From the IMG/VR virus record IMGVR_UViG_3300030294_000026, positions 1 to 64,000 of that record: a stretch of 64,000 nucleotides of DNA; one strand, given 5' to 3'. The notes under the pieces are model-generated. The model was not told the origin of the DNA, did not search any database, and saw only the letters and a list, made by a program, of their open reading frames with translations. This DNA is from an uncultured virus (IMG/VR IMGVR_UViG_3300030294_000026). Taxonomy: Duplodnaviria; Heunggongvirae; Uroviricota; Caudoviricetes. Made by a program: the position numbers and the translations under genes. Shown in pieces: positions 5,333 through 37,145 of the stretch; within the stretch, counting starts at the first letter, position 1; the number at the start of each line of letters is the position of its first letter.

Positions 5333-5959
5333 TCATGACATTACTATTTTTTGTAATAAATCAGTAAAATTATAATCTAAACCTATAATATCAAAATCTT
5401 CTCTGTCACTTGATTCACATTTTCCGTTGTAGTTTATTATCATAACGTCTGGAAACCAATCATCTATATCGTAATGTTCTTTATACCATGCTTGAACTTC
5501 TTCGCTATCATATATTGAGTTATACTTTTCTCTTGGATTGGTTTTATGATGTTTGTCAAATTCTATTAGATAAGAATTAAATTTAGGTTTTCCATTAATA
5601 TTATTGTGAAATATGATATGTGCATCGCTTCTTCTTTTTGATAGTGACCAAGTTTCTTCTAGCTTAAAATAATTCACTTCAGTTACTATACTGTTTATTT
5701 CTGCATAGAGATTTAATAAATAATAACTATGGTCTGATATTGTATTTTTACTAAATTGATATATTAATTCTTTCCCATATTTGTTTTTATTAGCTACTAT
5801 ATCTTTGTTGTTTGTTAACCTTGTTAATACTCTTCTTGCCATGTCTATTTTACATTTGTCATCTTTATAGAATAAATTAGCACATATTCTAGTGGTTATA
5901 AATCCATATTTTTCTATGAAGTTAAGTATATTTCTTACCTTTTGTGTATATCTAATCAT
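5333..5959 (-). CDS. Replic_Relax-like (replication-relaxation) protein
   Basis: wHTH-like N-terminus, DHSYYL and SDAHI..YLIEFD motifs; directly downstream of FtsK-like ATPase. Confidence 0.65.
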   Translation of the reverse strand: MIRYTQKVRNILNFIEKYGFITTRICANLFYKDDKCKIDMARRVLTRLTNNKDIVANKNKYGKELIYQFSKNTISDHSYYLLNLYAEINSIVTEVNYFKLEETWSLSKRRSDAHIIFHNNINGKPKFNSYLIEFDKHHKTNPREKYNSIYDSEEVQAWYKEHYDIDDWFPDVMIINYNGKCESSDREDFDIIGLDYNFTDLLQKIVMS

Positions 5960-5961
5960 TC

Positions 5962-7647
5962 TTATTTTCTCCTTTCTTGATATTTACTCCATTTTGATTG
6001 TTTTGATTCTCTTGATTTTTTAGTAAAATCTATAGTTTTTTTAACATTTTCTTCTGATTTTTGTTCTTTTTCAGTATTTTCTTGTTGTTTTTCTTGATTT
6101 TCATTAATTAATAGTTCATTTTCTTTTTGAACAATATTCCCTTGATTGTCCAATTCCATAAACTCTTTATCTTTTTCTATTAATGGCTTTAAATAATCAA
6201 TAACCATTTTAGAATCTAAATATAATGTTTTCCCATGATATATTTCATCTGCAACTGCAATAAATTCTCTTTGTTTCTTTTGTCTAATTGCTAATGATGC
6301 CAATTCTCCTTCTCCTAATATAGTTAATGCACTAGCAGTATTGGGAAAATAAAAACAAATTTGATTCCCTAAATTTCCCTTTACATCTCCAGACATATGA
6401 GTAAGTGAACCTCTTTGAGTACAGAGAATACAATAAACTCCACTTGATCTACCTTCTCTAGCAAGCTTCCACATTAAAGCATTACATTTTTCTTTATCTT
6501 TTTTCTCATTATCATTTTCTTCAGCACCATTTACTGCAAAACTTGCGACCTCATCAATACAAAAGTATATAAGTGGTAACTTTATATCATGACAATCATT
6601 ATATTCATAAACATTGGTGATGCTTCCACTATCATCAACTTCATCAAACATTTTATTACGTCTTGAAACTTCTCTGCTTAGATACCTTAATTCTTTTAAA
6701 GCTGATTTAGTATCCTTAGCGTAATATTTGCAGTGTTTTATATTTTTAAACATTCTAAGATCTTGCTTATCACTCAGCATACAAATTGCTAATTGAACTA
6801 AACTTTCGTCATTACTTAATACTAAATTTAATAATCCCATTATCATAGATATAGTTTTTCCAGAACCTGCTGAACCTCCGATAAGAACATTTGGGCTGGT
6901 TTTAAAATTTAATATAATAGCCTTATAAGCATGTGTCATTCCATTATATAACTCCCAAGGTTTAACTTTAATTGGTTCATATTTTTCTTTATCAGGAACT
7001 TTAGTATTCATTATTTCTATACTTGTTTGATTTTTAGTATCATCAAAATGTAGGGAGCAAATTCCAAATATTTTATTTAAATCAACTATATTTTCTTCCA
7101 ATACATCATAACTAAGTCCATTTGGAATAGAAATTTTAAAGTTATAACCTATTAGCACTTTGTTTCCCTTTTTATCTAGTTTAGTGGGATGATATATTTT
7201 TTCAGATTCATCTAACTTGAATGTTTCACCATTACCATTCCTTTTTTTAGAGTCAGCAAATGCACTATACCAATTGAATTTGATTGAGTCTATTTCATTA
7301 ATATCTAATCCTTGCAAATGACATCTCATGTATATACTTGATTTAGTAGAACTATATTCTGCTATTACTTCACCTCTATAAACTACCCCGATTGCAGGTA
7401 ACAACTTTCTAAAATCATTTAAACTTTTTCCGTAAGGCATTACTACTATTACATCAAATCCATAATGTTTTATAAATATATCTTCTAGTACATAGTAGTT
7501 TGCTTTTTTATTAAAATCACTATAAGTTTTATTTGTTGGTACATCTTTACTTAAATCAATACTATTAACTCTTTCCATTAATATTTTCCATTTATTTTTT
7601 ATGTTGTTTTTAACTTGATGCTCTGCAAAATAACTACTTAACTCCAT
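5962..7647 (-). CDS. FtsK/SpoIIIE-family ATPase
   Basis: PNVLIGGSAGSGKT Walker A, FCIDEVA Walker B, LAREGRSSGVYCILCTQR. Confidence 0.9.
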   Translation of the reverse strand: MELSSYFAEHQVKNNIKNKWKILMERVNSIDLSKDVPTNKTYSDFNKKANYYVLEDIFIKHYGFDVIVVMPYGKSLNDFRKLLPAIGVVYRGEVIAEYSSTKSSIYMRCHLQGLDINEIDSIKFNWYSAFADSKKRNGNGETFKLDESEKIYHPTKLDKKGNKVLIGYNFKISIPNGLSYDVLEENIVDLNKIFGICSLHFDDTKNQTSIEIMNTKVPDKEKYEPIKVKPWELYNGMTHAYKAIILNFKTSPNVLIGGSAGSGKTISMIMGLLNLVLSNDESLVQLAICMLSDKQDLRMFKNIKHCKYYAKDTKSALKELRYLSREVSRRNKMFDEVDDSGSITNVYEYNDCHDIKLPLIYFCIDEVASFAVNGAEENDNEKKDKEKCNALMWKLAREGRSSGVYCILCTQRGSLTHMSGDVKGNLGNQICFYFPNTASALTILGEGELASLAIRQKKQREFIAVADEIYHGKTLYLDSKMVIDYLKPLIEKDKEFMELDNQGNIVQKENELLINENQEKQQENTEKEQKSEENVKKTIDFTKKSRESKQSKWSKYQERRK

Positions 7648-7649
7648 TA

Positions 7650-7931
7650 TTATCTGTCCTTTCTTTTATTAATTTTTTCAATTAATTTTGTCAATTCACT
7701 ATCATCGGATAAACCATCATTTTTTAGTGCCTTTAGAAAATGTTTTGTAAGTATAGGTGCAAATCCAACCATTGTGCCCTCTATCAACAACCACCATGGA
7801 GCGACTCCAGTTCCTCCAGCGAATGTAATCATAGTTCCAGCTTTATATAATCCATAAAATTTTGTAGAAAACATAAATGTTTCTGCTCCCAAAATACCCC
7901 AAGCACTGCCATATATAATTTTCTTAATCAT
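7650..7931 (-). CDS. Small membrane protein, first gene of FtsK operon
   Basis: Gly-rich hydrophobic segments; GAGGAG RBS. Confidence 0.7.
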   Translation of the reverse strand: MIKKIIYGSAWGILGAETFMFSTKFYGLYKAGTMITFAGGTGVAPWWLLIEGTMVGFAPILTKHFLKALKNDGLSDDSELTKLIEKINKRKDR

Positions 7932-8010
7932 GTATAACTCTCCTCTTTTTTGTTTATACTATATGTATATTCAGTTATTCTAAAAATGTGCTTAAAGGAG
8001 GTAGTTTTTT

Positions 8011-8577
8011 ATGTATTTAATTTTAGGCATTATATGTGTATTTATAATTGCATGTTGGATTGCTTCTGAGTGGATAATTCGCAGTAATTATAAAGATAGT
8101 CATGATGGTAAAAAATACAGTATAAACAGACAGTTAAAATTGATATCAGATTCTATAAATCAGCTTGACGGATTTGAATTTGAAGAATTTTGTATGTACA
8201 TGTTCAAATTAGGAGGATTAAATGCAAAAGTCACTAAGAAAACTAATGATGGTGGCAAGGATATAATAATTAAAGATAAAGATGGTATCATATATGTTGA
8301 ATGTAAGCATTACGCTGAAGAAAATAAAATTACAGTAAATTTAATTCATAAGTTAATAAGTGCATGTACTGTTGACAATGTAAAGCGTGGAATATTTATT
8401 ACCACTTCGGTTTATACAAGTTCGGCTATTGAGTTAATTAAGAAATGCAAAGCAGTTGATATAGATATATGGTATAAAGACGATGTTCTCGATTACTGTA
8501 GGAATATTGATAGAATAGTGTTATTAGAATGGCTAGGATATGATAGATATGAGGTGATGAAGTATTGTACAATATAA
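8011..8577 (+). CDS. Membrane-anchored Mrr-family restriction endonuclease-like protein
   Basis: N-terminal TM; LDGFEFEEFC, DGGKDII, YVECKHY, GIFITTS. Confidence 0.85.
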   Translation: MYLILGIICVFIIACWIASEWIIRSNYKDSHDGKKYSINRQLKLISDSINQLDGFEFEEFCMYMFKLGGLNAKVTKKTNDGGKDIIIKDKDGIIYVECKHYAEENKITVNLIHKLISACTVDNVKRGIFITTSVYTSSAIELIKKCKAVDIDIWYKDDVLDYCRNIDRIVLLEWLGYDRYEVMKYCTI

Positions 8578-8624
8578 AAATAAAGCCTATTCTATTTAAT
8601 TAATATTTAGAATAGGCTTTATTT
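8578..8624. terminator. Bidirectional intrinsic terminator
   Basis: AAATAAAGCCTATTCTA...TAGAATAGGCTTTATTT between convergent genes. Confidence 0.8.
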
Positions 8625-8634
8625 TTATATAAAA

Positions 8635-9750
8635 CTATTTTCCAAGATTCATATATTTATCTCTTATAGAAGATGATTTCCTTTTTGTACGGTCTATAGT
8701 TGTAGATGTCTTAGATTGAATACTTTTAGTATTATTAACCTTATTCATAATACTAAAATCAATCTCTATATCGTCCTTAATGCTATCCATACTTTGTTTT
8801 TCAACTTCTTTTTTCTTGTCCATTATACTTTTGTATGATGTTTTTAACTCTGTAATAATATTATTATTAAAGCTTGTACCTGCGGAAACGATAATATTTG
8901 TTTCATCATCCCAAACTGAGTCATGTGTAAAAGTAGCATAACCAAATAGATCCCTAATTAATTCTAAATTAATATCCTGCTTATGTTTTTTATTCAAAAT
9001 CATTCCATCTACTTTTGGATTCTTTAATGGTTCTACATATATACTTCTATTAACTGCATCAGATAATCCATTACCAAAATCATCATTGGCAAATTCCAAT
9101 ATTGTTGTAAATCCACTAGTTGTCAGTAAAACTTCTAATTCATTTTCATCTAAATTACCTTCTGCTGTAATATGATCGTAGTTTAATAATCTGGACATAG
9201 TGATTGAAAAATCTCTATTAATATCCATTTTATTCTCTCTTGAATTATTATCAAGTAATTGAATATTAGTAATAAAACCCTTACCATCATTATAAGCATC
9301 TCTTAATTGTTCTAAACTTTGAATTGCATTACCTTGCATTCCTAAGTCTTCATTAGCTCTTGGTAATACGGCTACTACATTAGATATCTTACCTTCTTCT
9401 CCATATATTTCACCAAAAGCTTCTGCAATTATACCACCCATTGTGCCTCCAGTTCCACCTGATAATGTATATACAAAGTAATATATCAATGAATTTGCAT
9501 ATCTTTCATAAATTCTTCTACAAATCTTATCGGCTATATCATCTTGGGTAATTACATTAATGGCATATTGTCTATTTTTAGCCATGCCTTTTAGTCCATC
9601 AATATGATATTTATTTTTATTATCTGTATCAATTGTTAGCAAATCCTCAAGACTTGTATTTACATAGAAAGCGTTACACCCTTCTTTTTCAAGTTCTCTA
9701 ACTATATTTCCTCCACCTTGACCGATTGCAATAAAAACTACGTTTTCCAC
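8635..9750 (-). CDS. tubZ: Tubulin/FtsZ-like partition GTPase TubZ
   Basis: FIAIGQGGGNI and tubulin signature SGGTGG, T7-like NLDENE, basic C-terminal tail. Confidence 0.9.
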   Translation of the reverse strand: MENVVFIAIGQGGGNIVRELEKEGCNAFYVNTSLEDLLTIDTDNKNKYHIDGLKGMAKNRQYAINVITQDDIADKICRRIYERYANSLIYYFVYTLSGGTGGTMGGIIAEAFGEIYGEEGKISNVVAVLPRANEDLGMQGNAIQSLEQLRDAYNDGKGFITNIQLLDNNSRENKMDINRDFSITMSRLLNYDHITAEGNLDENELEVLLTTSGFTTILEFANDDFGNGLSDAVNRSIYVEPLKNPKVDGMILNKKHKQDINLELIRDLFGYATFTHDSVWDDETNIIVSAGTSFNNNIITELKTSYKSIMDKKKEVEKQSMDSIKDDIEIDFSIMNKVNNTKSIQSKTSTTIDRTKRKSSSIRDKYMNLGK

Positions 9751-9752
9751 AA

Positions 9753-10052
9753 TTACTCATTCCTTTCATTCATCATATTTTGAATATCTTGATCTTTTAA
9801 ATTATGTGCTATTTTAAAATTTTCAATTCCATTTTGACTAACATAGTAGGTTTTAAATTGCCCATCTTTAGTACCTTCTAAAATTAAACCAGTCATCAAA
9901 AAATATTTAATAACATTTCGTATCTTAGATGATGATAATTCTGTTAAATTCATCAACTGTATTCTATTTAATGATGCTACTGAGGAAACACAATTATTAG
10001 CAATTAATTCTTCCAATACTCTATAATCTCGTTTATTAAATAATTCAGACAT
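9753..10052 (-). CDS. tubR: Centromere-binding adaptor TubR (winged helix)
   Basis: 99-aa wHTH-like protein (GTKDGQFKTYYVSQNG wing) immediately upstream of tubZ. Confidence 0.75.
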   Translation of the reverse strand: MSELFNKRDYRVLEELIANNCVSSVASLNRIQLMNLTELSSSKIRNVIKYFLMTGLILEGTKDGQFKTYYVSQNGIENFKIAHNLKDQDIQNMMNERNE

Positions 10053-10059
10053 AATATAT

Positions 10060-10510
10060 CACCACCTTATAACATTTAACTAGACAAATAATACCATTAT
10101 ACATATCACTTGTCAATATACTACTATCATCATTTGATACTTTATATAAATAATATACTAACTATGTATTAAAAGTGTTACTACTATCACAAAATTATTT
10201 AATCATACTGTTAATACAATGTACTCATAATGATTAAACAATGCATATATACTGCTTATAAAGTATCAATATAATGCTATTATAGTGATTATACAATGTT
10301 AATATAGTTAGTATATTATATATTAATTATAAGTACGTAATAGCCACATCAACTCAAGTGTACTATAGTTGTAATTGAACTTTTCTAAAGTAAACTATAG
10401 TTATAGTATAAATAACTTAAACTAAAGTCAATTTGAACCATAGAAAATTTAAACTGAATTCTATTGTATACTTGAGTATAGATTTGTTATACTATAACTA
10501 TAGTTTAATT
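10060..10510. promoter_or_regulatory. Putative tubC centromere and divergent tubR/tubY control region
   Basis: Perfect 21-bp inverted repeat 10391-10411/10487-10507, ACTATAGTT x3, TACTACTATCA x2. Confidence 0.55.
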
Positions 10511-10525
10511 TAATGGAGGTTTAAC

Positions 10526-11326
10526 ATGCATAATAATATTATTGACGTTGATTATATAGACATAGAAAAGGTAGTATTTTTAACAGCACCAGATGTAGCT
10601 AGAGAAATACCAGCAGATGAAAAAAGGGTTAGATATTGGGGCGATGTATTTGGCGATATTAAAGAATGTGGAGTACGCAAGATAGACGGACGTAAAAAAT
10701 ATACTAAACAGACTATTAAGGCTTTTAAGATTATTCAAAAATTAATTGATGATAAGCAGTTTTCTCATATACAAGTAAGAGATTATATAAGTAAAAATGG
10801 ATTTGAATACATTACTGATCCTGATTCAAAAGATTTATCTAAGGATTTAATTGGATATAATGGCTTATCAAGTGAGTTATCAGTAGAAATAGAACAGAGA
10901 TTAAATTCTTTTCTTAATAGTTTAAAAACTCAGATATTAGAAAACAATGAAATATTAAAAAATGATATAAAAGAACAAGTTGCAATGACAGTTGACGAAG
11001 TAATAACTGATATACTAGAAGAATCTATGAGTGGTATAGATAAAGAACTACAATTACAAAAAGAAAGTAATATGCAACTGTCACAACAATTATCTGATGT
11101 TCAACAAGAACTAGCACTTACCAAAGAATCAAATCAAAAGCAATTAGAATCTCAATCTAAACAATTACAAACTAATCTTGAAAATATGACTAATAAAATC
11201 ATTAAAGATATCATAGAAGATAATGACAAGGCAATAAATGAATTTAAATGTATAACATTGGAACAAATAAAAAATAATCAAGAACCAAAAGGAATAATTG
11301 CTAAAATATTTAACTTAATGAAATAA
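10526..11326 (+). CDS. tubY: TubY-like MerR-HTH/coiled-coil partition regulator
   Basis: MerR-type HTH (APDVAREI..RVRYW..GRKKYT), long coiled coil, amphipathic end KGIIAKIFNLMK; next to tubRZ. Confidence 0.75.
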   Translation: MHNNIIDVDYIDIEKVVFLTAPDVAREIPADEKRVRYWGDVFGDIKECGVRKIDGRKKYTKQTIKAFKIIQKLIDDKQFSHIQVRDYISKNGFEYITDPDSKDLSKDLIGYNGLSSELSVEIEQRLNSFLNSLKTQILENNEILKNDIKEQVAMTVDEVITDILEESMSGIDKELQLQKESNMQLSQQLSDVQQELALTKESNQKQLESQSKQLQTNLENMTNKIIKDIIEDNDKAINEFKCITLEQIKNNQEPKGIIAKIFNLMK

Positions 11327-11495
11327 CAACTCAACATAGGAATATATTTGTCACAATAGAGATTAATTTCTGATACTATAACAGGCTCTAGGAATAGAGA
11401 TAGAAGTTTAAAGGTAATAGTTGTTGTCTTTAGAATTGGACTGTGTATGAGAGCGAGAAGTGGGTTTAAATTAATATGAATGGGAGCATGAATTT

Positions 11496-12260
11496 ATGTA
11501 CGGAATATATAATATTTATAGTAATGGTAAGCTAATTTATATTGGAAAAACAATTAATTTTTATACAAGATTAAAAACTCATATTTCACAACAACCTTGG
11601 AGTAATGAGATAACACACATTTCTGTTGCTAAATGCAAAACTAAAGTAGATATGGATTTATATGAAAAGTATTATATCAATAAACTAAATCCTAAATATA
11701 ATAAAGCAATTGTATACAATGAAACACCAACTTTTGCAGTAGAAGAATTAAACTTTCAAAGTTTTACTCTTGAAAAATTCTTAAAAATTAACGAACCAAA
11801 AAATCTGAGAAACAGCAATGTTAATAAAAGCTATGAGAAACGTAAATTAGAAATATCAGAATTTCTAAAAACTTCAGTTGAAATAAAAGATGGTATAAAA
11901 ATAGACTTTTCAAACTCCAATAATACATTGTATCATTGGTGGAATACACTTAAAACAGATATTAATTTTTTACACATAGACGGAGATATTCAATTCTTTA
12001 AGCAAATTTTAAAAGGTGTCAAAGAAAATAAGTATGAATTTATTTTTGAAAATAGTGAAGAAATTTTTAGAAACCTTGATTTATATAGCTTAGGATTGAG
12101 AATTGATAGTTATTCAATTAGTAATAAGAGAATCAGTAAAGGATTTACTGGAGTTAATTTCATTTTAGGAATGAATATGAATCCAAGAACAAAAGATGTT
12201 ACTGTAAGAGTAAATAGATATATGCTAGAAGAATATTTTGATAAGTATTTTATCTATTAA
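11496..12260 (+). CDS. GIY-YIG nuclease domain protein
   Basis: GIYNIY..LIYIGKT..RLKTH..YEKYYINKLNPKYN. Confidence 0.85.
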   Translation: MYGIYNIYSNGKLIYIGKTINFYTRLKTHISQQPWSNEITHISVAKCKTKVDMDLYEKYYINKLNPKYNKAIVYNETPTFAVEELNFQSFTLEKFLKINEPKNLRNSNVNKSYEKRKLEISEFLKTSVEIKDGIKIDFSNSNNTLYHWWNTLKTDINFLHIDGDIQFFKQILKGVKENKYEFIFENSEEIFRNLDLYSLGLRIDSYSISNKRISKGFTGVNFILGMNMNPRTKDVTVRVNRYMLEEYFDKYFIY

Positions 12261-12265
12261 TAATC

Positions 12266-12328
12266 TAGTCGGTTATTTATCTATAACTAAATTTTTATTA
12301 TAAAAATAATTAGATAAATAACCGACTA
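12266..12328. repeat. Perfect 18-bp inverted pair of iteron-like sites
   Basis: TAGTCGGTTATTTATCTA 12266-12283 / TAGATAAATAACCGACTA 12311-12328. Confidence 0.85.
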
Positions 12329-12471
12329 CTATTTGGAATAGAAAAGAGAGAAGTTGTGTTGCTTTTATTCCTTTTTAGTGAATAGTCTAAAGACTATTTT
12401 AAGAAGAGAATAGTTTAAATAGAATATAGGAGGCTGAAACTAACTGGTATCACTACGATTAGAGTATGTCA

Positions 12472-12688
12472 GGTCGGTATTTTATCCAATTGTGGTCGGT
12501 ATTCTATCTGTTGATAACGTGTTTACAGTCGGTATTTAATCTATGAGTAGTCGGTATTTAATCTATACAAAGTCGCTATTTTATCATATAATATTACTTA
12601 TAAACAACTAAATTCAACATAAACTGTGGAAAACATACTCAACATATTGATATTATCGTAATTTTATTGTGGATAAACTTGTGGAAAA
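12472..12688 (+). other. Iteron-type replication origin with DnaA boxes
   Basis: Five RGTCGGTATTTWATC-like iterons at 12472, 12494, 12527, 12549, 12571 (spacing 22/33/22/22), AT-rich tract, perfect DnaA box TGTGGATAA 12668-12676 and 1-mismatch boxes at 12509, 12625, 12680. Confidence 0.85.
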
Positions 12689-12698
12689 GGAGATTCTT

Positions 12699-14015
12699 AT
12701 GGGTAAATCTAGTAGCAAAAATAAAGAAGCATTTAAATCAATAATTGGAAAAACTAAAGTTATAAAATTAAGGAATGGTGAATCTATAATGGACGGTAAT
12801 TCTGTTCAAACTCCATTTTTAGCACCATACCGAATTGCAAAAGATGACAAAGGAAAACCTATGCCAATAACATTTGTTGAATATGAATGGACTGCTATTG
12901 AAGATGGTGTAGAAATAAAAAGGGGAATTGAAGTTAGTGGTCATGGTGCATTGGGTGTACCTACTTTAAAAGATAAAGAAACTTTAAGAGCATTACAAGA
13001 CATTTATGTGTGGAGTAAGATAGATAAAGGTATATTGGAACTAGAAATAGATGAAAGTAAGGTTACTGAGTCTGATTTGATGATAGATTTTATTTCTATA
13101 GATAATATAGCGACCTCATTAGGATATAATAGTACTAGTGGACAACAAAGAAGTGCTATTAAGGAATCTATTGAAAGATTAGTAGGTACAAAAATATCTA
13201 GTAAACATCATGGAGGACTGTATGATCCAGTAAAAAAGAGATATATTACCGACTCAAAAAAAACTTTTAGTTATCTAGATAGTATGGAAAATTATATTGA
13301 ATATGATTGCGATAATTGCTTATACTTCAATGGTTGTCACAGAAATACCGACAATTGTTTGAATGAAGAACATCAAAGAAAAGATGTTACCAAAATCAAA
13401 ATGAGCATGTTTCTATATCTTAGTATAGCTAATAATTATCGACTTTATTACAATAGAGATAAGGCTAATGAAATCAAAAATCTAATTTCTAAAAACATAT
13501 ATCTAATTTCTCGTAAATGGCTAGGAGATGGTTATATATCTAGAGCTAATATACAAAAATATATGGATAGAATACCTATGAACGCTAAACAGGAAAAACA
13601 TAGAAAGCAGGCTATTAAAGAGGGGATAGATATTTTAAATGAATATGATTTTGTTGAAGCTTCTATTGAAAAGGACGTAATTAAGGTTATTCATTTAGAT
13701 AAAAAACCGACTAAATTTAAAGAAGTTGCTTTAGATAAATTGCCGACTAAAGATGGTAGCTATCTAAAAGATAAATATTGTTTATTTAGTGAATTAAGAG
13801 AAGGTTTATTAGATATAGGTATCACTGAATTAGAGTTTAGCAGTATAGTAGACGGTAATATAGAAAAAATAGAGTATATCAAAGCCCTATTAAGATACGT
13901 AATGTTAAAACAAATATATGATAAGAATATAGATGCGAGGGAATATTTCTTAAACTGCTGGTATAAAGAAGGTGGGACACCAATAGATAAGAAGTATTAC
14001 AATGAAATAATATAG
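12699..14015 (+). CDS. Plasmid-type replication initiator protein
   Basis: AAGGAG RBS before ATG 12699; GVPTLKDKETLRAL and IKESIERL motifs of RepA-type initiators; directly downstream of iterons. Confidence 0.75.
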   Translation: MGKSSSKNKEAFKSIIGKTKVIKLRNGESIMDGNSVQTPFLAPYRIAKDDKGKPMPITFVEYEWTAIEDGVEIKRGIEVSGHGALGVPTLKDKETLRALQDIYVWSKIDKGILELEIDESKVTESDLMIDFISIDNIATSLGYNSTSGQQRSAIKESIERLVGTKISSKHHGGLYDPVKKRYITDSKKTFSYLDSMENYIEYDCDNCLYFNGCHRNTDNCLNEEHQRKDVTKIKMSMFLYLSIANNYRLYYNRDKANEIKNLISKNIYLISRKWLGDGYISRANIQKYMDRIPMNAKQEKHRKQAIKEGIDILNEYDFVEASIEKDVIKVIHLDKKPTKFKEVALDKLPTKDGSYLKDKYCLFSELREGLLDIGITELEFSSIVDGNIEKIEYIKALLRYVMLKQIYDKNIDAREYFLNCWYKEGGTPIDKKYYNEII

Positions 14016-19189: not shown

Positions 19190-20836
19190 ATGTCTAAACA
19201 ATTATCTAATCAGAAGAATATACTTAAAATACATACAAAAAGACTAAGAAAAAATAATTGGAGTTTAGACTTAGCATTGGAAGAAGCTAAAAAAAATAAA
19301 GAAGTTATTCAACTAGGAGATAGCCAAACTCTAAGATTTATTAATGAAATATTGGAAATAGAAAATCAAGATGAACAAATTAACAAAATAAAAGAAGAAA
19401 TAAAGGAACTTGAAAAATTAGATAACTCCATAGAAAATAGAAAAAAAATAAAAGAATTAAATAAAAAGAAAAATGGATTGAAATTTAATCAAGATTATTT
19501 ATGTTTGGTTATAGATAAAATTGGAGATTTTGATAAATGTAATAGAAGATGTAGTTTCTTTGTAAATGGGAAACAATTTGTAAGATTATTAGGAACTACA
19601 GGTGGAATAAAAAACGAAACTATAGTATACGTTAGTAGAGATGTATTTGACCAATTACATAAAAAATTGGATAATGGTAGAGATTTAGATAAACCTTTAG
19701 TTCCAGCTAAATTAGAAGCATATAAAGCATTATCTTGTAGTATGAGTGTTCCAGTTAGAGATCCAAAAAGCATATTGGTAGTAGATGATTGCATAACTCA
19801 TTTCAAAGAAGATATAATACAAATAGATGATTCTAAAGGAGAAAGACCAGTTTTAGAAATAATAAAAGATTTTGATGTTGAATTAATTGATAGTGATGGT
19901 TATGGTCTTATATCTCCACAATTAAGTAAGTTATGGGGAGTAGATATTAAAGAATGTGAATTAAAAGACAAATTTGTACCAACAGGTTTTTGTATTAGAA
20001 ATGCTTTTACTAAGGGAATGGTTTTTACATTTGATTTTAAGAGATTTGCAAAACAAATAGCACATAAAAAAATAGTTAAAGATGTGTGGGGGCAAGAGAG
20101 AAATATAAATAAAGTTGATTTAATATTAACTACTTCCATGCTTAAATTATGGGACAGTTATGAATCATTAGAACACTATTTAGCTTGTTGCAAAGAAAAT
20201 GAATGGACTTTTAGTATTACAAAAATGTGTCCAAAAGAATTAGAAAATGAAAGAACATTAAATTATCAATTTTTACAGTCTTTTAAACTTAATGATGAAG
20301 ATATTAAAGAATTAATTAAACCAACTGTAGATAGTATCAAAGACAGTTTAACAATGGACTATGCAAAAACATTACTATTCCTAAAGGGAACTAAATTGAA
20401 TGATAAAAACTCATTTGTTGGAGAAGATGATTATGTTAAAGCGTTAATGGTTGATGAAGAATTATTAAATGATCCTTATATACAAGATAGAGTATATAAT
20501 ATGCGAAAGAAACGTATTCAAGATGCAAAAGTTGGTGTTTTAAATATGCAAGGATGCTATGCTATAATATCTGGCGACCCCTATTCACTATGTCAAAGTA
20601 TATTTGGTTTAGATGTAACAGGATTACTAAAAGCCGATGAATTATATAGTAAATATTGGTCAGATAAGAACAGTAAAGAAATAATAGCTTTTAGAGCACC
20701 TATGACATGTCATAATAATATAAGAAAATTACAAGTAACATCTACAGAAGAAATGCAACAATGGTATAAGTATATGAAAACATGCTTGATACTAAATTCA
20801 TGGGACACCACAACTCATGCTGAGAACGGTGCCTGA
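19190..20836 (+). CDS. yonO: YonO-like single-subunit (double-psi-barrel) phage RNA polymerase, N-terminal part
   Basis: PAKLEAYKAL, DSDGYGLISP, GFCIRNAFTKG, LNYQFLQ, FRAPMT; ends ENGA immediately before the catalytic aspartates. Confidence 0.85.
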   Translation: MSKQLSNQKNILKIHTKRLRKNNWSLDLALEEAKKNKEVIQLGDSQTLRFINEILEIENQDEQINKIKEEIKELEKLDNSIENRKKIKELNKKKNGLKFNQDYLCLVIDKIGDFDKCNRRCSFFVNGKQFVRLLGTTGGIKNETIVYVSRDVFDQLHKKLDNGRDLDKPLVPAKLEAYKALSCSMSVPVRDPKSILVVDDCITHFKEDIIQIDDSKGERPVLEIIKDFDVELIDSDGYGLISPQLSKLWGVDIKECELKDKFVPTGFCIRNAFTKGMVFTFDFKRFAKQIAHKKIVKDVWGQERNINKVDLILTTSMLKLWDSYESLEHYLACCKENEWTFSITKMCPKELENERTLNYQFLQSFKLNDEDIKELIKPTVDSIKDSLTMDYAKTLLFLKGTKLNDKNSFVGEDDYVKALMVDEELLNDPYIQDRVYNMRKKRIQDAKVGVLNMQGCYAIISGDPYSLCQSIFGLDVTGLLKADELYSKYWSDKNSKEIIAFRAPMTCHNNIRKLQVTSTEEMQQWYKYMKTCLILNSWDTTTHAENGA

Positions 20837-21980
20837 CAAAGATTCAGATGCATTTATTACCACAGATAATCCAGTTCTATTGAGAACGTATGAAAAATTG
20901 TTGGCTATATTTTGTGTTCAAAAATCAGCACAAAAAATTAAAGTCACTGAAAAAAGTCTTATTAAAGCAAACAAAGATGGTTTCGGAGATGATATAGGTA
21001 CAACTACAAATAGAATAACTGAAATGTTTGATATATTAGCTAAGTTTAAAGAAGACTCATTAGAATATAAGGAATTAATGTATCGTATAATGTGTGGACA
21101 ACATTATCAACAATGTGCGATAGATAAAATCAAGGGCATAAAATCTAATCCTATGCCTAAAGAATGGTATGATTCAAGAGTAAATAGGATTAAAGTAGAT
21201 ACTAATACAGGAGAAATATTGGATAATGAAGAAATTATAAAATTAAAAGAGTTTAATACAAAAATTGTAGCTGATAAAAAACCATATTTCTTTATATACA
21301 TATATCCTCAATTAAAAAATTCATATGATAAATTTATAAAAGAAACTGAAAATAAATGTATTACTCAGTTTGGAATTTCATTAAATGAATTATTCAAAAA
21401 GAAGAATAAAAATGAGATAGAAGAAAGTTTCATAAAATATTACAACTTAAAAAATCCAGTTAGTAATAATAATTGTGTAATGAATAAAATATGCAGAGAA
21501 ATAGAAAGAGAGTTTAAAGGAATTAAAAACAAATTAAACAAAACAAAGTTTGATTATACTGTTTTAAAAACAGATGAAAAATACACAAAGAATACTTATA
21601 ATAAAATAAAAATCATATATGAAGAATACATGATTGAGTTGTCACAATTTAAAATGTTGTCTAAAAAGAATAGAGTAGGTAAAGAAGATAAAAACGATGG
21701 AATGATAATATTAAAACAAAACTTCAAAGAAAAATGTCAAGAAGAATGTATTAATAAAGATGAACTTTGCAATATATTAGTTGATATGTGTTATAATACT
21801 GAAAAATCTAAACAATTCGTTTGGGATATGTGTGGTAATCAAATAATAAATAATTTATTACATAAAAATAATTTCATTATTAACTATCCTGAATTAGATA
21901 ATATTAATGGAGATGTAGAATTTGGTGGAGAAAACTTTATTCTAAATACTATTGAAATAAAGAAAGGAGAAGATAAATAA
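20817..21980 (+). CDS. yonO: YonO-like RNA polymerase, C-terminal part (+1 frame)
   Basis: DKDSD catalytic motif, DIGTTTNRIT, QQCAIDKIKG, KKPYFFIYIY; no RBS before its own ATG. Confidence 0.85.
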   Translation: MLRTVPDKDSDAFITTDNPVLLRTYEKLLAIFCVQKSAQKIKVTEKSLIKANKDGFGDDIGTTTNRITEMFDILAKFKEDSLEYKELMYRIMCGQHYQQCAIDKIKGIKSNPMPKEWYDSRVNRIKVDTNTGEILDNEEIIKLKEFNTKIVADKKPYFFIYIYPQLKNSYDKFIKETENKCITQFGISLNELFKKKNKNEIEESFIKYYNLKNPVSNNNCVMNKICREIEREFKGIKNKLNKTKFDYTVLKTDEKYTKNTYNKIKIIYEEYMIELSQFKMLSKKNRVGKEDKNDGMIILKQNFKEKCQEECINKDELCNILVDMCYNTEKSKQFVWDMCGNQIINNLLHKNNFIINYPELDNINGDVEFGGENFILNTIEIKKGEDK

Positions 21981-22768
21981 TGAAATTAGAATTAAATGAA
22001 AATAGTAAAATAAAAACAATATTAGAAGAAGGTATAGTATCAGATAAACCAAGTGAAACTATTAACTTATTGGCTAGACATTATAATAAGCAGAGTATGA
22101 ATCAAGAGCAAATAGTACAAGCAATAAATAAATTTATGATAAAAAATGATTCTAGTAAGTATAATAGTGTTACTTGGGAAGATTTAGTCGAAGGAATAGT
22201 AAAGACAGTTATAAAAAATAATAATGATTTAATAGAGGTAAAAGAAGTTAAGATGACTAAATCAGAAATAGAATATATTAAATCATTAGAAAACGAGAAA
22301 ATGCAAAAATTAATCTTTACATATTTAGTGTATGCTAAAATATTCAATCAAATAAATTCTAAAAATAAGAATTGGGTTAAAGGAGAATGTAGGAATGAAG
22401 TATTTAAAGACGCAGATATAAAAGAGACTGGGAAGGAACAATTAAAAACAATACATAAGTTAGTTAGTCTTGAAGTATTAAAGATAGCTAAAAATATAAC
22501 AAATAATAGTGTTAATTTAGATAATGTAATTAATGATAATAGTGAAGCAGAGTTAATAATAAACGATTTTAGAGAATTAGGATTACAATGGCTTAGATAT
22601 ATAGGTATAAAAGGTGTGTGTAGTTGTAGTGAATGTGGAACGCTATTTAAAAAGAAGTCTCCTAATAGTAAACAAAAAGTTTGCAACATATGTGCAAAAA
22701 ATATAAAGAATGAACAGAATAAAGGTTATTATCATAATTTAGGAAAATGTAAAACAACGTCTAAGTAA
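21980..22768 (+). CDS. RNAP-linked hypothetical protein with C-terminal Zn ribbon
   Basis: TAATG coupling to RNAP; CSECG..CNIC. Confidence 0.75.
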   Translation: MKLELNENSKIKTILEEGIVSDKPSETINLLARHYNKQSMNQEQIVQAINKFMIKNDSSKYNSVTWEDLVEGIVKTVIKNNNDLIEVKEVKMTKSEIEYIKSLENEKMQKLIFTYLVYAKIFNQINSKNKNWVKGECRNEVFKDADIKETGKEQLKTIHKLVSLEVLKIAKNITNNSVNLDNVINDNSEAELIINDFRELGLQWLRYIGIKGVCSCSECGTLFKKKSPNSKQKVCNICAKNIKNEQNKGYYHNLGKCKTTSK

Positions 22769-23078
22769 GTAATATCAACGCTTAACAGAGCTACCTCCAG
22801 TTTCCTATAGTGATAGGATATAAGCGATATTATTCCTGTCAAATACTTTTAATTTTTTCATTTTTCCACATCTACCTTTATAATTATTTTAACTCTCTCC
22901 TGACATTGGCAAGGTACAAACAGGTATTCTTGCCTTGTTAGAGAAAGAAAATATGATTGTGGTATGAATTGAATGGTAAAACAAAAATAAATTAATGTAT
23001 AAAACAATGCTTAATTCAACTGAAAAGTTGTTTTAAAATAAGCGTGACTGCTGAAAACGTCACTAGGAGGAATTAACA

Positions 23079-23636
23079 ATGTATTGCAAAATATGTAAGA
23101 AAGAAAAATTAGAACAAAAATTTTACAAAGGATTTAAAGAATGTAAAGATTGTTTAGAAGAGCATCTAAATAAATTACCTAATACCGTAGCTTATGAAAA
23201 AGTAAAAGATTTATTACAAAATAATAACTATGTTGTTAATGAAGAATTGTTACATAGTATTTTCTTTAGCGATGAAGATACTATAAGAGGAAAAAATAAT
23301 ATTGGTAGATTAGGTCATTATTTAAAGGATATAAATAGTCTTCCACAATATAATAAATATAGAATTAAAGTTGTTGAAAAATCAGATATAGACTTTATAA
23401 ATGATGATATTAAACAATTAAAGAAGAATATAGAAAATGCAATTCAAAAAGAAGATTTCAATGCACATAATAAATGGATGAACTGTTTAAGAGATGCTAT
23501 TGAGTTGAGAGAAACATTACTAGGAGGTAGTAAATATACTATTAATCTAGGTACAATTAATGTTAATAGTAGTAGTGCTGAAGATCTTATGAATGAAATA
23601 ATAAAATTAGCAGAAAAGAAAGTAAAATGTAATTAG
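23079..23636 (+). CDS. Chimeric protein: TerS(YonG)-like Zn domain, helical hairpin, tape-measure-like C-terminus
   Basis: Manual alignment to 36105 ORF N-terminus and 57696 ORF C-terminus; GGAGG RBS. Confidence 0.65.
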   Translation: MYCKICKKEKLEQKFYKGFKECKDCLEEHLNKLPNTVAYEKVKDLLQNNNYVVNEELLHSIFFSDEDTIRGKNNIGRLGHYLKDINSLPQYNKYRIKVVEKSDIDFINDDIKQLKKNIENAIQKEDFNAHNKWMNCLRDAIELRETLLGGSKYTINLGTINVNSSSAEDLMNEIIKLAEKKVKCN

Positions 23637-23675
23637 TAATTAAAACACGTTAAAATGTTTTAAAATATATTTTAG

Positions 23676-24230
23676 GTGGCGACTGACGCTAAGGAGATAA
23701 TAAATATGACAAATCAATTTTTAGAAAACGAGAAAATATCTTTAGAAGATAAAATTACAAAAGCTAGAGAAGGTAATAATGAAAATACATACAAGAATTT
23801 AATTCAAGCTTATGAAAGAGTTTTAGAATTGATTAGAAAAGAAAATGTATGGACAGATATGTATTCACATTATAAATTGAAAATTGAAGATGAGTTTCAA
23901 GACGTAGTATCTACGTGGAAGCAAAAGGGTGAAGACATCAAAGACCATAAGATTTATAAAATTGAAAAAGAAATAACAAATGATAATGAAAAAATAGGTA
24001 TAGCATTAAAAAGTATGTTTGAAAAATATCAAAGTAATGAAACTAAAAAAGCAATTGAATCTATAATAAAACGTAAAATAGATGAAGATGAAAGTTTTTA
24101 TGATGTATTAAAATCTTTATCAAATGAATGGGATGATTTTACTGAAAACAATAAGAAAAATATTAGTAGAACAATTGCAGGAATAAGAAATGAAGATTGC
24201 TTTAAAGCATTATTAGATAATTTAAAATAA
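23676..24230 (+). CDS. Protein with helical hairpin and tape-measure-like C-terminal segment
   Basis: FYDVLKSLSNEWDDFTENNKKNISRTIAGIRNEDCFKALLDNLK resembles TMP core; start probably ATG 23706. Confidence 0.65.
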   Translation: MATDAKEIINMTNQFLENEKISLEDKITKAREGNNENTYKNLIQAYERVLELIRKENVWTDMYSHYKLKIEDEFQDVVSTWKQKGEDIKDHKIYKIEKEITNDNEKIGIALKSMFEKYQSNETKKAIESIIKRKIDEDESFYDVLKSLSNEWDDFTENNKKNISRTIAGIRNEDCFKALLDNLK

Positions 24231-24336
24231 AATATAACTTTTAAGATAATAAATTAATGTATAAACAAATAGTAAATATCCCTATTAAGGGTTATAAAAT
24301 AAATTAAATTAGAGAGAAGAAAGAGGAGATTAAAAA

Positions 24337-24666
24337 ATGAGTAAAGTAAAAACAATTAAAAAGGACGAAATTTTAACAATTATTAAAGATGTATATGGAT
24401 TCTCTACAAAGAAAGAAGCTGAAACTAGATTTTGTGATTTGGATTCTTTAATAGAAGTTATTTCAAGTAATTTAAATGCTGGAGAAAAGGTTAATATAGG
24501 AAAGTATTTAGTTTTAGAAAAGAAGCATGTGGAAGCTAAACCATCTAAGAACGGAGAAATGACTAGAGTAATTGATGGAGTTAATACAAAAGTACCTTAT
24601 ACTACAGAAGCTAAACCAGAACACGATGAAGTTAGACTAAAATCAACCAAACAGTTAAATAAATAA
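24337..24666 (+). CDS. HU-family DNA-binding protein
   Basis: IKKDEIL..STKKEAE..GEKVNIGKYLVLEKKH..VRLKSTKQL; position matches SPbeta yonN. Confidence 0.75.
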   Translation: MSKVKTIKKDEILTIIKDVYGFSTKKEAETRFCDLDSLIEVISSNLNAGEKVNIGKYLVLEKKHVEAKPSKNGEMTRVIDGVNTKVPYTTEAKPEHDEVRLKSTKQLNK

Positions 24667-30355: not shown

Positions 30356-30967
30356 ATGGTGAAAGTTATGGGAGAAATATATCAACCAATAAACCGTCTT
30401 TTAGAAGAAATGAAATTAAGTGATTACTTACATAAAAATATAATATACCTCGATACAGAAGTAGATAGAGATAGTCAAGTAATGTTTTGTAGACAATTAA
30501 CAAAATTAGCAGAACAAGAATTAAGTAAACCTGAAAAAGAAAGACAACCTATAAAAATAAGAATTTCAAGTTTTGGTGGTTGGGTTGTAAGTTTTATGGC
30601 TTTGGCAAGTATAATGTTGCATTATCAAGAAAAGGGAATAATCATAGAAACTTACTGTGATGGGTTTTGTATGTCAGCAGGAGCTTATCTTTTAATGTTA
30701 GGGACAAAAGGACATAGATATGCTACTAGATTTTCAGATATATTAATTCACCAAACTCAGTTTTCATGTGGTGGACATCAAACTTATAGAGAAAAAGAAA
30801 AGAGTTTTGAATACGATAAAAGAGATTGGAAAATGTTATGTGATTTAATGAGAGACTATACCGAATTATCAGAAGAAGATATTGAAGGATTAACAAAATA
30901 TAACTTAGATATATCATTTAGTAGTATAGAAGCATTAGAACATGGAATAATTGATAAAATAATATAA
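30356..30967 (+). CDS. clpP: ClpP-family protease subunit
   Basis: ISSFGG, CMSAG (Ser), LIHQ (His), EALEHGIIDKI. Confidence 0.85.
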   Translation: MVKVMGEIYQPINRLLEEMKLSDYLHKNIIYLDTEVDRDSQVMFCRQLTKLAEQELSKPEKERQPIKIRISSFGGWVVSFMALASIMLHYQEKGIIIETYCDGFCMSAGAYLLMLGTKGHRYATRFSDILIHQTQFSCGGHQTYREKEKSFEYDKRDWKMLCDLMRDYTELSEEDIEGLTKYNLDISFSSIEALEHGIIDKII

Positions 30968-32137: not shown

Positions 32138-32758
32138 TTGATAAAAATGAGTGAGATGAGAGTTTATCAAGAAAAAATGTTAAATAGTAAAAAGGAAATT
32201 GTAGTATGTAATTGGGAACGTGGAGAAGGTAAAACTTATTCTATATTTAGAAAAATTATGGAGAATAAAAATGGTAAGTATTTATATATTTCACCTTTTG
32301 AACCGAGAGCATTGCAAGATTATTTTAGAGAGTATGTTTATGAAGAAAATATTTTGATTAAATTGCACAAATGTTCTAGAGATAAAATTAGTATAGAATT
32401 TAACAATGGAGATATATTGGAAGTATTTTGTTATAAACCTAATAATGAACCAAGAGCATTGAGAAATATTAGCATTACATTTTTTGATGAGTATTATCCT
32501 AGTAAAGAATATATAGATAGTATAGTTAAACCTAAAGATGTTATACAAATATTTATAATGATGAGTAATAATACTATTGAATACATAGATAGTAGAACAA
32601 ATAAAATTACTCGTAGTAATTTCTGTGATATTCAAATAGAAGAATTAATGATTGAATATGCTGAAACACCTAAGAATAAAAATACAACTTTATCAAGAGA
32701 AAATATATTAAAACAAATTAATGTATTACAAAATATGAGGTGTGGCAACAAGGAGTAG
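32138..32758 (+). CDS. Truncated terminase-like P-loop ATPase
   Basis: YQEKM, WERGEGKT Walker A, RALR..FFDE Walker B; no nuclease domain. Confidence 0.65.
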   Translation: MIKMSEMRVYQEKMLNSKKEIVVCNWERGEGKTYSIFRKIMENKNGKYLYISPFEPRALQDYFREYVYEENILIKLHKCSRDKISIEFNNGDILEVFCYKPNNEPRALRNISITFFDEYYPSKEYIDSIVKPKDVIQIFIMMSNNTIEYIDSRTNKITRSNFCDIQIEELMIEYAETPKNKNTTLSRENILKQINVLQNMRCGNKE

Positions 32759-35439: not shown

Positions 35440-35781
35440 ATGAGTTTTAAACCAGTAATAGGTATATTTATATCCAATGAAAAAGAATTAGAGAATTTAT
35501 TAGATAGTTATCCATATAAAGACGAGGTTGCAAAAACTAATAGAATTTCTTTTAATGTTAGAATTATGGAATTTGAACATTATGATTTAAAAATATTTTA
35601 TAGTGTGAATCAAAGTGCAAGAGGTTATAGATTTAGCAATGTTATAGTATCACAATCTATAATGAAAAGTATTGAAAATAGTAGTAATAATAATGATGAT
35701 TATATAGGAATGTTATATAACTTTATAAATCCGTATAATTATTTTGGTGCAAATATTAATGTTGTTGATTTGAGTTGGTAA
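35440..35781 (+). CDS. Hypothetical protein, possible degenerate terminase-ATPase fragment
   Basis: QSARGYRFSNVIV segment. Confidence 0.6.
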   Translation: MSFKPVIGIFISNEKELENLLDSYPYKDEVAKTNRISFNVRIMEFEHYDLKIFYSVNQSARGYRFSNVIVSQSIMKSIENSSNNNDDYIGMLYNFINPYNYFGANINVVDLSW

Positions 35782-36074
35782 AGGAGACTTTAATGAAATA
35801 TAATCCTAAAATAATAGCCCTATATAAAGAAGATAATGAATTAAATAATGTTCTCATATCAAGATTATTACAATATGAAAATATCGAAGTTAAAACTATA
35901 AAGATAAATAAAAAATCAGATTATTATAATTTACATGGTACTAGAATAGATGGACTTTATATATCTAGTAAATTATATGGAGTAATTTTAGAAGATGATA
36001 TTTTAGATGTATTAGAGCCAATGCTAAACGTAAGTATATTTAATTCAAGGATTATATGGTTTAGTGAAGAGTAA
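35775..36074 (+). CDS. Hypothetical protein, possible degenerate terminase-ATPase fragment
   Basis: NLHGTRIDGLYI..ILDVLEPML; start likely ATG 35793. Confidence 0.6.
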   Translation: MVKETLMKYNPKIIALYKEDNELNNVLISRLLQYENIEVKTIKINKKSDYYNLHGTRIDGLYISSKLYGVILEDDILDVLEPMLNVSIFNSRIIWFSEE

Positions 36075-36104: not shown

Positions 36105-37145
36105 GTGGCAAAAAAAGCACAAGGTAATACAGAGATGACAGATAGAGAACTAATATATTGTACAGGTTGTGACCACGATAAGAAACCTAGTGAATTCTAT
36201 AAAAGTTATGGCACAACTAAATCTGGCACACTACCATACTGTAAACAATGTTGTATAAATATGAGTTTAAATAATATTGGAAGTTTAGATGTTGATAATT
36301 TTAAAAATATGTTATCTAAGGTAGATAGACCATTTCTATATCAAACATTAGCCGATAATTTAAAAAAATATCCTAACAAAATAGAATCTGCTATAGGTTT
36401 TTATTTTAAGGATTTAGGCATGGTTCAAAATAGAGGATCTAAGTATAAAGATAGTATTTTTGAACCTAGTAATATTAATGAAAATTCAGCAAGTAGTATT
36501 ATTACTTCAAAAAAAGCAAAATATGAAATAGAAGATATGACATATGAACAATTAGAAGATAAATATGGTGTGGGATATACAGATGAAGAATACTATTGTT
36601 TTGAGAAAAAATGGAGAAAACTTGCAGATAGTTATGGTCAAAAAACATCAATACATACAGAATCGTTGACTACATATATAAGATTCAGAGTCAAAGAAGA
36701 GTTAGCAACAGCAAAAGGTGATGTAGCAGAAGCTACTAAATGGGGAGGATTAGCTGAAAAAGCTCAACAGTCTGGAAAGCTAAATGTATCTCAATTAAGT
36801 AAATCGGACATAAGTGGCGGAGTTGATCTACTGCCTCAATTATTTGAAGCAGTAGAAGATAAAGTTGGCATAATTCCAATTCTTCCTAAATTAAAAGAAC
36901 AACCATATGACGATGCTGATTTGATAATATGGTCAATTATAGAATATATGCAAAGATTAGAGGATAAACCAAGAACACAATATAAAGATATATGGAATTT
37001 TTATGATGAAATGCTTGTAGATTTTTACAAGCAAAAAGGTTTTTCTGATGAAAAAATACAAGAAGAAAGAAATAAAAGAAATGCTGTATTTAGAGATTTA
37101 ACAGACGTATATAAAGAACCATTATATGAAGATGGTGATATATAA
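36105..37145 (+). CDS. Putative terminase small subunit (YonG-like) with N-terminal Zn finger
   Basis: CTGC..FYKS..CKQC; KYGVGYTDEEY; coupled to terL. Confidence 0.7.
   Translation: MAKKAQGNTEMTDRELIYCTGCDHDKKPSEFYKSYGTTKSGTLPYCKQCCINMSLNNIGSLDVDNFKNMLSKVDRPFLYQTLADNLKKYPNKIESAIGFYFKDLGMVQNRGSKYKDSIFEPSNINENSASSIITSKKAKYEIEDMTYEQLEDKYGVGYTDEEYYCFEKKWRKLADSYGQKTSIHTESLTTYIRFRVKEELATAKGDVAEATKWGGLAEKAQQSGKLNVSQLSKSDISGGVDLLPQLFEAVEDKVGIIPILPKLKEQPYDDADLIIWSIIEYMQRLEDKPRTQYKDIWNFYDEMLVDFYKQKGFSDEKIQEERNKRNAVFRDLTDVYKEPLYEDGDI

Follow-up and report, generated by a model that had tools for sequence, protein, structure and literature searches.

A phage gene slot whose small proteins join a constant helical hairpin to swappable pieces resembling packaging and tail proteins: possible counter-defence decoys

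The DNA analysed here (the window) covers the first 64 kb of a virus record of 73.7 kb; among named relatives, Clostridium phages and phage-plasmids come closest. Of the 24 sequencing runs listed, all labelled peat metagenome, 18 contain half or more of the window's words, and no RNA run holding the window was found among these listed runs. RNA polymerase (RNAP) is encoded in two overlapping ORFs, 19190 and 20817 (548 and 387 aa; 19190-21980; Pfam RdRP E 1e-9), followed in order by HU, a beta-CASP nuclease, ClpP, the TerS-like gene 36105, TerL, portal, head genes and a tape measure protein (TMP) of 2063 aa. The RNAP is presumably YonO-like and 37145 presumably TerL, labels that we assign from the Pfam hit, motifs and synteny; 36105, for which family searches gave no named family match, is called TerS by its position only. 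Between RNAP and HU lie two small genes, A and B, behind a leader of 250 nt. Their parts, and the parts of 36105 and TMP with which they are compared, are as follows.

22880-22954, plus strand: long leader hairpin with pyrimidine/purine arms and a loop around ACAGGTA, present once in the genome
22989-23003, plus strand: 15-bp motif AAATTAATGTATAAA, a copy of a phage motif
23006-23042, plus strand: second, short conserved leader hairpin
23044-23070, plus strand: RBS-adjacent hairpin of the long-loop type with the Shine-Dalgarno of ORF A, from sequence and alignment with relatives
23079-23369, plus strand: module Z of ORF A, aa 1-97, a paralog of the N-terminal CxxC...CxxC domain of 36105
23376-23522, plus strand: module H of ORF A, aa 100-148, A-type hairpin (AF2 helices 103-123 and 127-147; family search)
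23523-23636, plus strand: module T2 of ORF A, a swappable tail of strand and helix weakly resembling the TMP C-terminus
23677-23696, plus strand: RBS-adjacent 5-bp hairpin, loop ACTGA, with the Shine-Dalgarno of ORF B
23706-23846, plus strand: module H of ORF B, B-type hairpin, from ATG 23706
23847-23975, plus strand: module Bb of ORF B, a three-stranded beta-meander
23982-24230, plus strand: module T1 of ORF B, helical TMP core (end of PF10145)
36105-37145, plus strand: TerS-like gene, named by its place before TerL and portal
36153-36458, plus strand: counterpart of Z in 36105
36684-36770, plus strand: helical hairpin of 36105, a weak candidate for the origin of H
59373-59633, plus strand: counterpart of T1 in the TMP gene, about aa 560-646
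63783-63866, plus strand: counterpart of T2 at the TMP C-terminus, aa 2030-2057

Other genes of the record are of interest in their own right. The stretch 5962-14015 holds FtsK-like, tubulin (Pfam E 2e-9), MerR-like and weak RepA-like genes, which suggests a plasmid-prophage partition/replication module; because of the tubulin and Rep-like genes, the phage itself may be a plasmid prophage. RNAP is a single ORF of 939 aa in two related loci (L013 and L014) and is split by a 500-nt gap in a third (L007), and the ORFs at its place in L005 and L009 have no BLASTP match at 1e-4 although their neighbours are close, so that RNAP alleles seem to be swapped too. In two related phages (G001:C1:132513-138035 and G003:C1:70161-75270) the TMP gene appears split in two inside the PF10145 core, owing to an intron, a frameshift or an assembly error.

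The sequence-only reading had taken A and B for chimeras made of pieces of the phage's own TerS and TMP. Both ORFs are intact, A from 23079 and B as ORF 23676, and the segments quoted in that reading are present in the sequence. Comparing pairs of proteins inside the window could not prove the resemblances, because BLASTP gave E 0.51 for A against 36105 and 0.021 for B against TMP and the shuffling tests were marginal: the score was equalled in 1 of 300 shuffles for A1-97 against 36105, in 6 of 200 for the A tail against the whole TMP and in 8 of 200 for the B tail. Family profiles bear the first resemblance out. The N-terminus of A belongs with the 36105 family: phrog_3314 matches A at E 2e-4 and its relatives at values as low as 1e-22, and Z matches the 36105 family in hhalign with P 92.6 in one comparison and 98.9 against 27 core gene families. 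The match of the TerS HMM to A is confined to model positions 20-142 of 341; A is without the conserved C-terminal half of 36105 and is not a full-length TerS-like protein, and it lies after RNAP, 13 kb upstream of the TerL-portal position that 36105 occupies. For the tail of A, the claimed likeness to the TMP C-terminus is probable yet weak: TMP ranks top of the 27 core families, but at E 0.004 and P 8.5, and a TMP C-terminal HMM gives 2e-5 for the relative P0017 and 0.031 for A, compared with 0.19 for the best of the reversed controls. Among five TMPs compared, T2 of A is closest to the window's own type. A can thus be described as a TerS-like N-terminal Zn domain, a helical hairpin of about 48 aa and, more weakly, a TMP C-terminus-like tail. 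With A, tblastn found no match in GenBank phages, nor did profile scans of genome contigs with the A and B alignments; its whole model retrieved generic helical hairpins only (BFVD; PDB by VIA), in searches that barely probed the Z part.

B had been placed at 23676. Its start is most likely ATG 23706, behind AGGAG at 23692-23696 as in its relatives; the GTG at 23676 falls within the leader hairpin. From there B reads as H, the beta-meander Bb and the TMP-core domain T1. The resemblance of its tail to the TMP core holds in profile searches (phrog_4211 E 7.6e-8; hhalign P 93.9; tblastn to SPbeta YomI 4e-4), and the T1 match to PF10145 scores 16 bits, below the Pfam cut-off of 33.2. In Foldseek, T1 aligns with 'minor tail protein' models of the PhageMin_Tail type, with rmsd values of 2.2-3.8 A and a best E of 7.5e-3; such models make up 5 of the top 33 rows (prob 1.00), none of them at E 0.001. 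B has 174 aa, lies outside the tail module and carries about 80 of the more than 2000 residues of TMP. Profile and fold searches found no source protein for Bb. The whole model of B matched generic helical hairpins only in the PDB (VIA, Foldseek), with the Bb part barely probed, ESM Atlas searches with B1-92 gave only leads under 0.9, and a two-copy complex prediction of the H-Bb part scored 0.23 against a mark of 0.42.

The claim of a hairpin shared by A and B stood in part. Compared directly, the two hairpins are not significantly similar (hhalign P 1%; 89 of 300 shuffles reach the score). They nevertheless share a slot, a leader and a predicted fold, and they are interchangeable in relatives: an A-type hairpin precedes the beta module of B in P0027, P0032 and P0034, and a B-type hairpin follows the Zn domain of A in L021. 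A search with A found 35 relatives and one with B found 29, and the ends of these proteins differ wholesale. An H profile (49 positions, 14 sequences) run against 1.84 billion representatives at E<=0.001 found a family of 197 clusters at 50% identity; proteins are shorter than 430 aa in all but two of the 150 of 197 H matches listed. Modules were then defined by iterative HMMs in 206 proteins, among which a few near-duplicates between loci and database proteins remain and from which P0127 and P0176 (long repetitive matches, probably false) and P0036 (a near-copy of B) were excluded. These proteins display 32 architectures with modules on either side of H: Bb in 78, Z in 68, N in 39, W in 30, T2 in 23, T1 in 17, V in 12, and rarer others. 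A Z, T1, T2, N or S module occurs in 108 of the 206, a P-loop piece only in 28 more, and nothing traceable in the remaining 70; short H-only and H-Bb-only proteins occur as well. We therefore regard A and B, from their sequences, as members of a large undescribed family with a constant hairpin and swappable pieces, a constancy that had escaped the sequence-only reading.

The hairpin itself matches no Pfam, PADLOC or consistent PHROG family. In PADLOC-DB 2.0, B had no match and 3 of 62 members had single unrelated ones; fold searches of H found nothing beyond generic hairpins. The idea of a UVR (UvrB/C) hairpin gained no support: at E<=0.05, neither of the window's hairpins matches a Pfam family. 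H ranks the central hairpin of 36105 best of the 27 core families and at the expected place, but weakly (hhalign E 0.003, P 10), and a full-length TerS was not recognised among the 150 H library matches listed. PF27269 is precomputed on some A-type relatives and is absent from the local Pfam copy; Pfam may therefore have gained a newer model that covers the Z domain.

The position right after RNAP, to which the sequence-only reading had drawn attention, recurs: related loci also carry a slot gene between the RNAP region and HU. In six of them (L005, L007, L009, L013, L014 and L015) there is one slot gene per phage, of A-type or B-type, the RNAP call in L005 and L009 and the HU call in L007 and L014 being made by size, position or reading rather than BLAST. 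Two genes in tandem are found in the window and in the Clostridium records L099 and L114-L122, and three complete genomes scanned whole (G001, G005 and G006) have one H gene each. Distant members lie elsewhere, before TerS in D-1873, L106 and L034 and after a DNA polymerase III-like gene in L016. In two Clostridium phage-plasmids, an allele in which H is joined to an NlpC/P60 peptidase (L114 10856-11608, L099 4931-5683) forms a tandem pair with an H-R-Z allele in the RNAP-HU interval. In L101 a W-H gene at about 5372-5992 has an internal stop and is otherwise near-identical to the intact gene of L100.

The module profiles were compared with the 27 core gene families of related phages. Besides Z and T1, whose best matches are TerS (P 98.9) and the TMP core (P 93.9), S of one protein (P0114) best matches the neck-region gene 45283 (P 94.2), and N the nuclease region of TerL (P 38.9, E 3e-4). 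For N, two TerL nuclease domains head 3150 windows (E 0.003 and 0.008; best reversed 0.019), and the ESM Atlas search points to Terminase_6C as a lead (18% of members, score 0.89); P0177, with matches to phrog_24618 and phrog_5713, is a further point in favour of TerL. On the other side, the best PDB sequence match is a rhodanese (E 7e-5), not a terminase, and a TerL HMM from 15 close relatives found no slot protein at E<=0.1. W is a short P-loop piece with weak AAA_14-type matches that keeps GxGK[TS] in 15 of 30 cases; it matches TerL weakly and in the Walker A only (E 0.025), and its profile found no P-loop protein in the PDB. The NlpC/P60 piece of one allele is clear (E 3e-28, catalytic motifs intact-looking). 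NlpC/P60 domains occur in tail proteins. Among the 27 core families no match was found for Bb, V, J, U, Q, R or M, and no capsid, portal or tail-tube module was detected against these families. The T1 and T2 HMMs of the family miss the whole TMP of the window and reach E 0.39 and 0.13 on the chopped TMP (T2 reversed control 0.021).

Some neighbouring genes invite comparison with these modules. A stand-alone shortened P-loop ORF lies at 32138-32758, and its family aligns to the TerL ATPase (P 71, E 4e-5); G002 and L114 have relatives immediately ahead of TerS, and in P0115, P0129 and P0135 this domain is joined to H. ORF 32138 may be a further decoy outside the slot. A direct link between W and ORF 32138 (E 0.0015) was discarded, being equalled by a reversed control (0.0028). 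In L018 (G006), a 65-aa stand-alone TMP-core mini-gene (9213-9410; T1 HMM E 1e-5) stands directly before a W-H family gene, with a second, weak T1-like match nearby at 6121-6645 (E 0.017). Two ideas formed by eye gained no support from profile tests: module TT as tail-tube-like, and ORFs 35440 and 35775 (35440-36074, directly before TerS) as helicase/terminase ATPase fragments.

That the pieces come from the phage's own proteins did not hold. Z of A ranks its own TerS only 10th of 13 TerS N-termini, two related slot genes rank theirs 8th and 13th of 13, and for two T1 modules, that of B included, the own TMP is 3rd of 5; in all five cases with an own counterpart, the modules are nearer to other phages' proteins than to the carrier's. 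They are old paralogous modules moved between phages rather than self copies. Recent swaps are also visible: P0002 has the Z of A at 100% with another tail, P0041 the H-Bb of B at >90% with an N tail, one peat contig leaves the window sequence at 23524, right after H of A, for another tail, and in peat contigs several different sequences meet a common downstream flank at 24227.

Neutral evolution would mark such genes as recombination debris. By Nei-Gojobori estimates, dN/dS of H is 0.03-0.35 in 9 pairs (0.03-0.10 for ORF A, 0.12-0.22 for ORF B). For Bb it is 0.07-0.10 in three pairs (0.07-0.09 with L013 and L014) and 0.47 with L015; for T1 it is 0.20 and 0.32 within one subtype (0.32 against L013, CI 0.13-0.86) and about 1 between subtypes. 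For Z, four pairs give 0.61-0.71 and a fifth, very close pair gives 1.9; every CI includes 1, and the corresponding domain of true TerS has 0.09. For T2 it is about 1. H is therefore strongly constrained, and Z and T2 are either relaxed or diversifying. With H and T1 under purifying selection, these estimates argue that the A and B genes are not debris. The sequence-only reading is thus supported in part, in the chimeric anatomy of the two genes, their intactness and the selection on them.

A second invariant of the family, likewise overlooked before, is an RNA hairpin in its leaders. The slot leader has two hairpins common to A- and B-type genes; the long one is shared by both types in 7 aligned loci, was found only in slot leaders of relatives, and may act as a cis-regulatory RNA or, at the DNA level, as a hairpin promoter element. 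In addition, a stem-loop lies just before the Shine-Dalgarno of every family gene with readable upstream DNA. In 12 short-loop sequences, 60 of 60 cells are paired and both sides have changed in 3 of 5 pairs, a covariation score reached in 0 of 500 shuffles, although related sequences inflate this. A pattern made from this leader has 17 distinct matches in 1.12 Mb (925 SD-ATG sites), 16 of which precede family genes; these totals are inflated by overlapping regions, and the pattern misses the long-loop hairpin type seen at ORF A. Rfam 15 gave no match at E<=1 in 22600-24400. The 15-bp motif is probably an operator or activator site of a phage regulon: nine copies with <=1 mismatch, all on the plus strand, occur in the 73.7-kb record (15412, 17575, 17918, 19082, 22989, 24251, 31574, 49866 and 49931), three of them just before TTGACA. 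A sigma-70 scan was at chance (19 vs 15.5 +/- 3.6).

We suggest, with a probability of roughly 45%, that A and B are tandem alleles of a polymorphic counter-defence gene of SPbeta/c-st-like clostridial phages whose pieces serve as swappable decoys against sensors of core proteins. The copied modules resemble known or plausible triggers, judging by their profile and fold matches and by the published trigger list as far as the accessible text gives it. In the accessible part of PMC13581612, Avs proteins recognise by fold TerL (Avs1-3), a central helical TMP segment of ~130 aa (Avs18) and a head-tail connector, with TerS named only as a possible trigger; the accessible text of PMC12184496 describes lactococcal (Firmicutes) systems that respond to the ATPase domain of TerL, and that of PMC10973363 the SPbeta protein DSAD1 occupying the tail-tube pocket of DSR2. 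The decoy idea gains strength because further family pieces match TerL and a neck-region protein. Expression of the slot gene would go together with that of the RNAP/HU region, before the late genes or at the same time as they are expressed, and its copied fold, a fragment presumably unable to do the original job alone, would occupy a host sensor that the genuine TerS, TerL, TMP or neck protein would otherwise activate. Such a decoy would need an inhibitory part, since, in the text available from PMC13581612, the TMP core alone sufficed to activate Avs18; this need may be why H is invariant. H might block sensor oligomerisation, self-associate or bind a conserved host factor, and it would also provide the shared homology at which co-infecting phages exchange modules. 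The dose would be set by the RBS-adjacent hairpin, and hosts differing in their sensors would keep many alleles in the population by balancing selection. Several points count against decoys. A faithful copy of the TMP core could, given the Avs18 result as reported there, trigger a sensor rather than block it, and the inhibitory role of H is our assumption. Capsid, portal and tail-tube modules went undetected although they are common triggers, 70 of the 206 proteins have no traceable module, Bb, present in 78, is sourceless, and the NlpC/P60 allele looks catalytically intact. The fuller version, a combinatorial decoy library in which H is a universal inhibitor or degradation handle as well as a recombination hub and the modules copy the folds watched by host immunity, is something we put forward only tentatively and with more doubt than belief. 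Such a library would mirror the integrated-decoy receptors of plants. The phage has a ClpP gene at 30356-30967 (Pfam E 8e-23), syntenic in L005, L007, L009, L014 and L015; H proteins as protease adaptors linked to it would be pure speculation.

The same pieces could be turned on rivals instead of on the host. Fragments might attach to what the real proteins of related, competing phages normally bind (TerL, portal, tail chaperones, tail tip), so that packaging or tail assembly in those phages is poisoned, with H as a steric block. Since modules are closer to other phages' versions, as in all five cases above, such interference would spare the carrier, and it would suit a plasmid prophage, as the tubulin and Rep-like genes suggest and as the phage-plasmids among the relatives are; a precedent, according to the accessible part of PMC10884400, is Tab, a prophage defence that blocks assembly via TMP. 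However, the slot lies in a co-oriented RNAP-HU-morphogenesis run behind a shared phage promoter motif and not in a separate lysogeny locus, no obvious self-protection partner adjoins it in the synteny of related loci, and alleles that move among phages with differing TerS and TMP would risk poisoning their carriers. We consider this reading unlikely.

Two further readings seem to us clearly improbable. In one, H would be an RNA-binding hairpin of the Rop-like kind acting on the leader stem-loop, with the swappable domains as baits reading virion assembly or another phage. It would account for H and the RBS stem-loop as the two invariants of the family, the 16 genes behind pattern matches having Z, W or H at the N-terminus; but because the stem-loop stands only before H genes in the 1.12 Mb, no downstream regulon is visible, and there is neither an effector domain nor a linked effector gene, the fold matches being generic hairpins. 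In the other, only H, with or without Bb, would be functional, and the flanking pieces would be tolerated recombination scars from neighbouring late genes, as the dN/dS of Z and T2, not significantly below 1, and the short H-only and H-Bb-only proteins would allow. Against mere passengers stand the purifying selection on T1 in two independent pairs, the retention of both CxxC in 64 of 68 Z modules, modules that recur, each in 17-68 proteins and with domain-sized borders, on either side of H, the predicted fold of B's T1 as a TMP core, and a divergence from the phage's own genes too great for recent scars. Decoys against core-protein sensors remain the reading we prefer.

The source families of Z and T1 are known, namely phrog_3314 (TerS-like, in SPbeta/c-st-like phages) and the TMP core PF10145/TIGR01760. 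Reportedly, a domain-shuffling study of phage proteins found fragment exchange in receptor-binding proteins, lysins and polymerases that keep their function; ongoing exchange in arms-race genes is common to both cases, whereas here truncated core folds sit on a non-catalytic hub. DSAD1 (PMC10973363, accessible part) is like our proposal in that a small SPbeta-type phage protein sits in the trigger pocket of a sensor in place of a virion protein, but, compared by description, it is one protein for one sensor and here shuffled paralogous fragments are borne on a common carrier. The triggers of Avs/STAND proteins (Avs1-3, Avs14 and Avs18), that is TerL, the central TMP segment and the head-tail connector, overlap the copied modules; these, however, are host sensors tested in enterobacteria, the trigger fragments activated them, and phage decoys are not mentioned in the part of PMC13581612 available. 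Tab is also a small phage-encoded protein acting on virion assembly via TMP, but it is constitutive from a prophage and has an anti-Tab partner, and the accessible text of PMC10884400 describes neither paralogy to TMP nor a combinatorial family. No such family appears in the accessible parts of EVADES (10.1101/2025.06.06.658234), PMC7824862, 10.1101/2023.04.06.535777, 10.64898/2026.06.04.730250 and PMC13728456, and a search of the full-text literature, which holds few subscription journals, found neither such a family nor phage decoys derived from paralogs described.

Phages cannot easily mutate away from sensors that recognise the folds of their core proteins, and little is established about how they counter such sensors. 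The family described here offers a direct test case, as a constant domain is fused to what seem to be interchangeable copies of sensed folds. If sensor blocking is true, its modules would predict immune triggers in Firmicutes and could serve as baits for the receptors; if there is a whole decoy library, the module list would map those triggers and predict sensors for the TerS Zn domain, the TMP C-terminus and whatever Bb imitates. If poisoning of rivals is true, it would be a new modular form of phage-phage competition. Either way, a 'hypothetical protein' gains a defined anatomy, and the conserved hairpin and its RNA leader become concrete targets.
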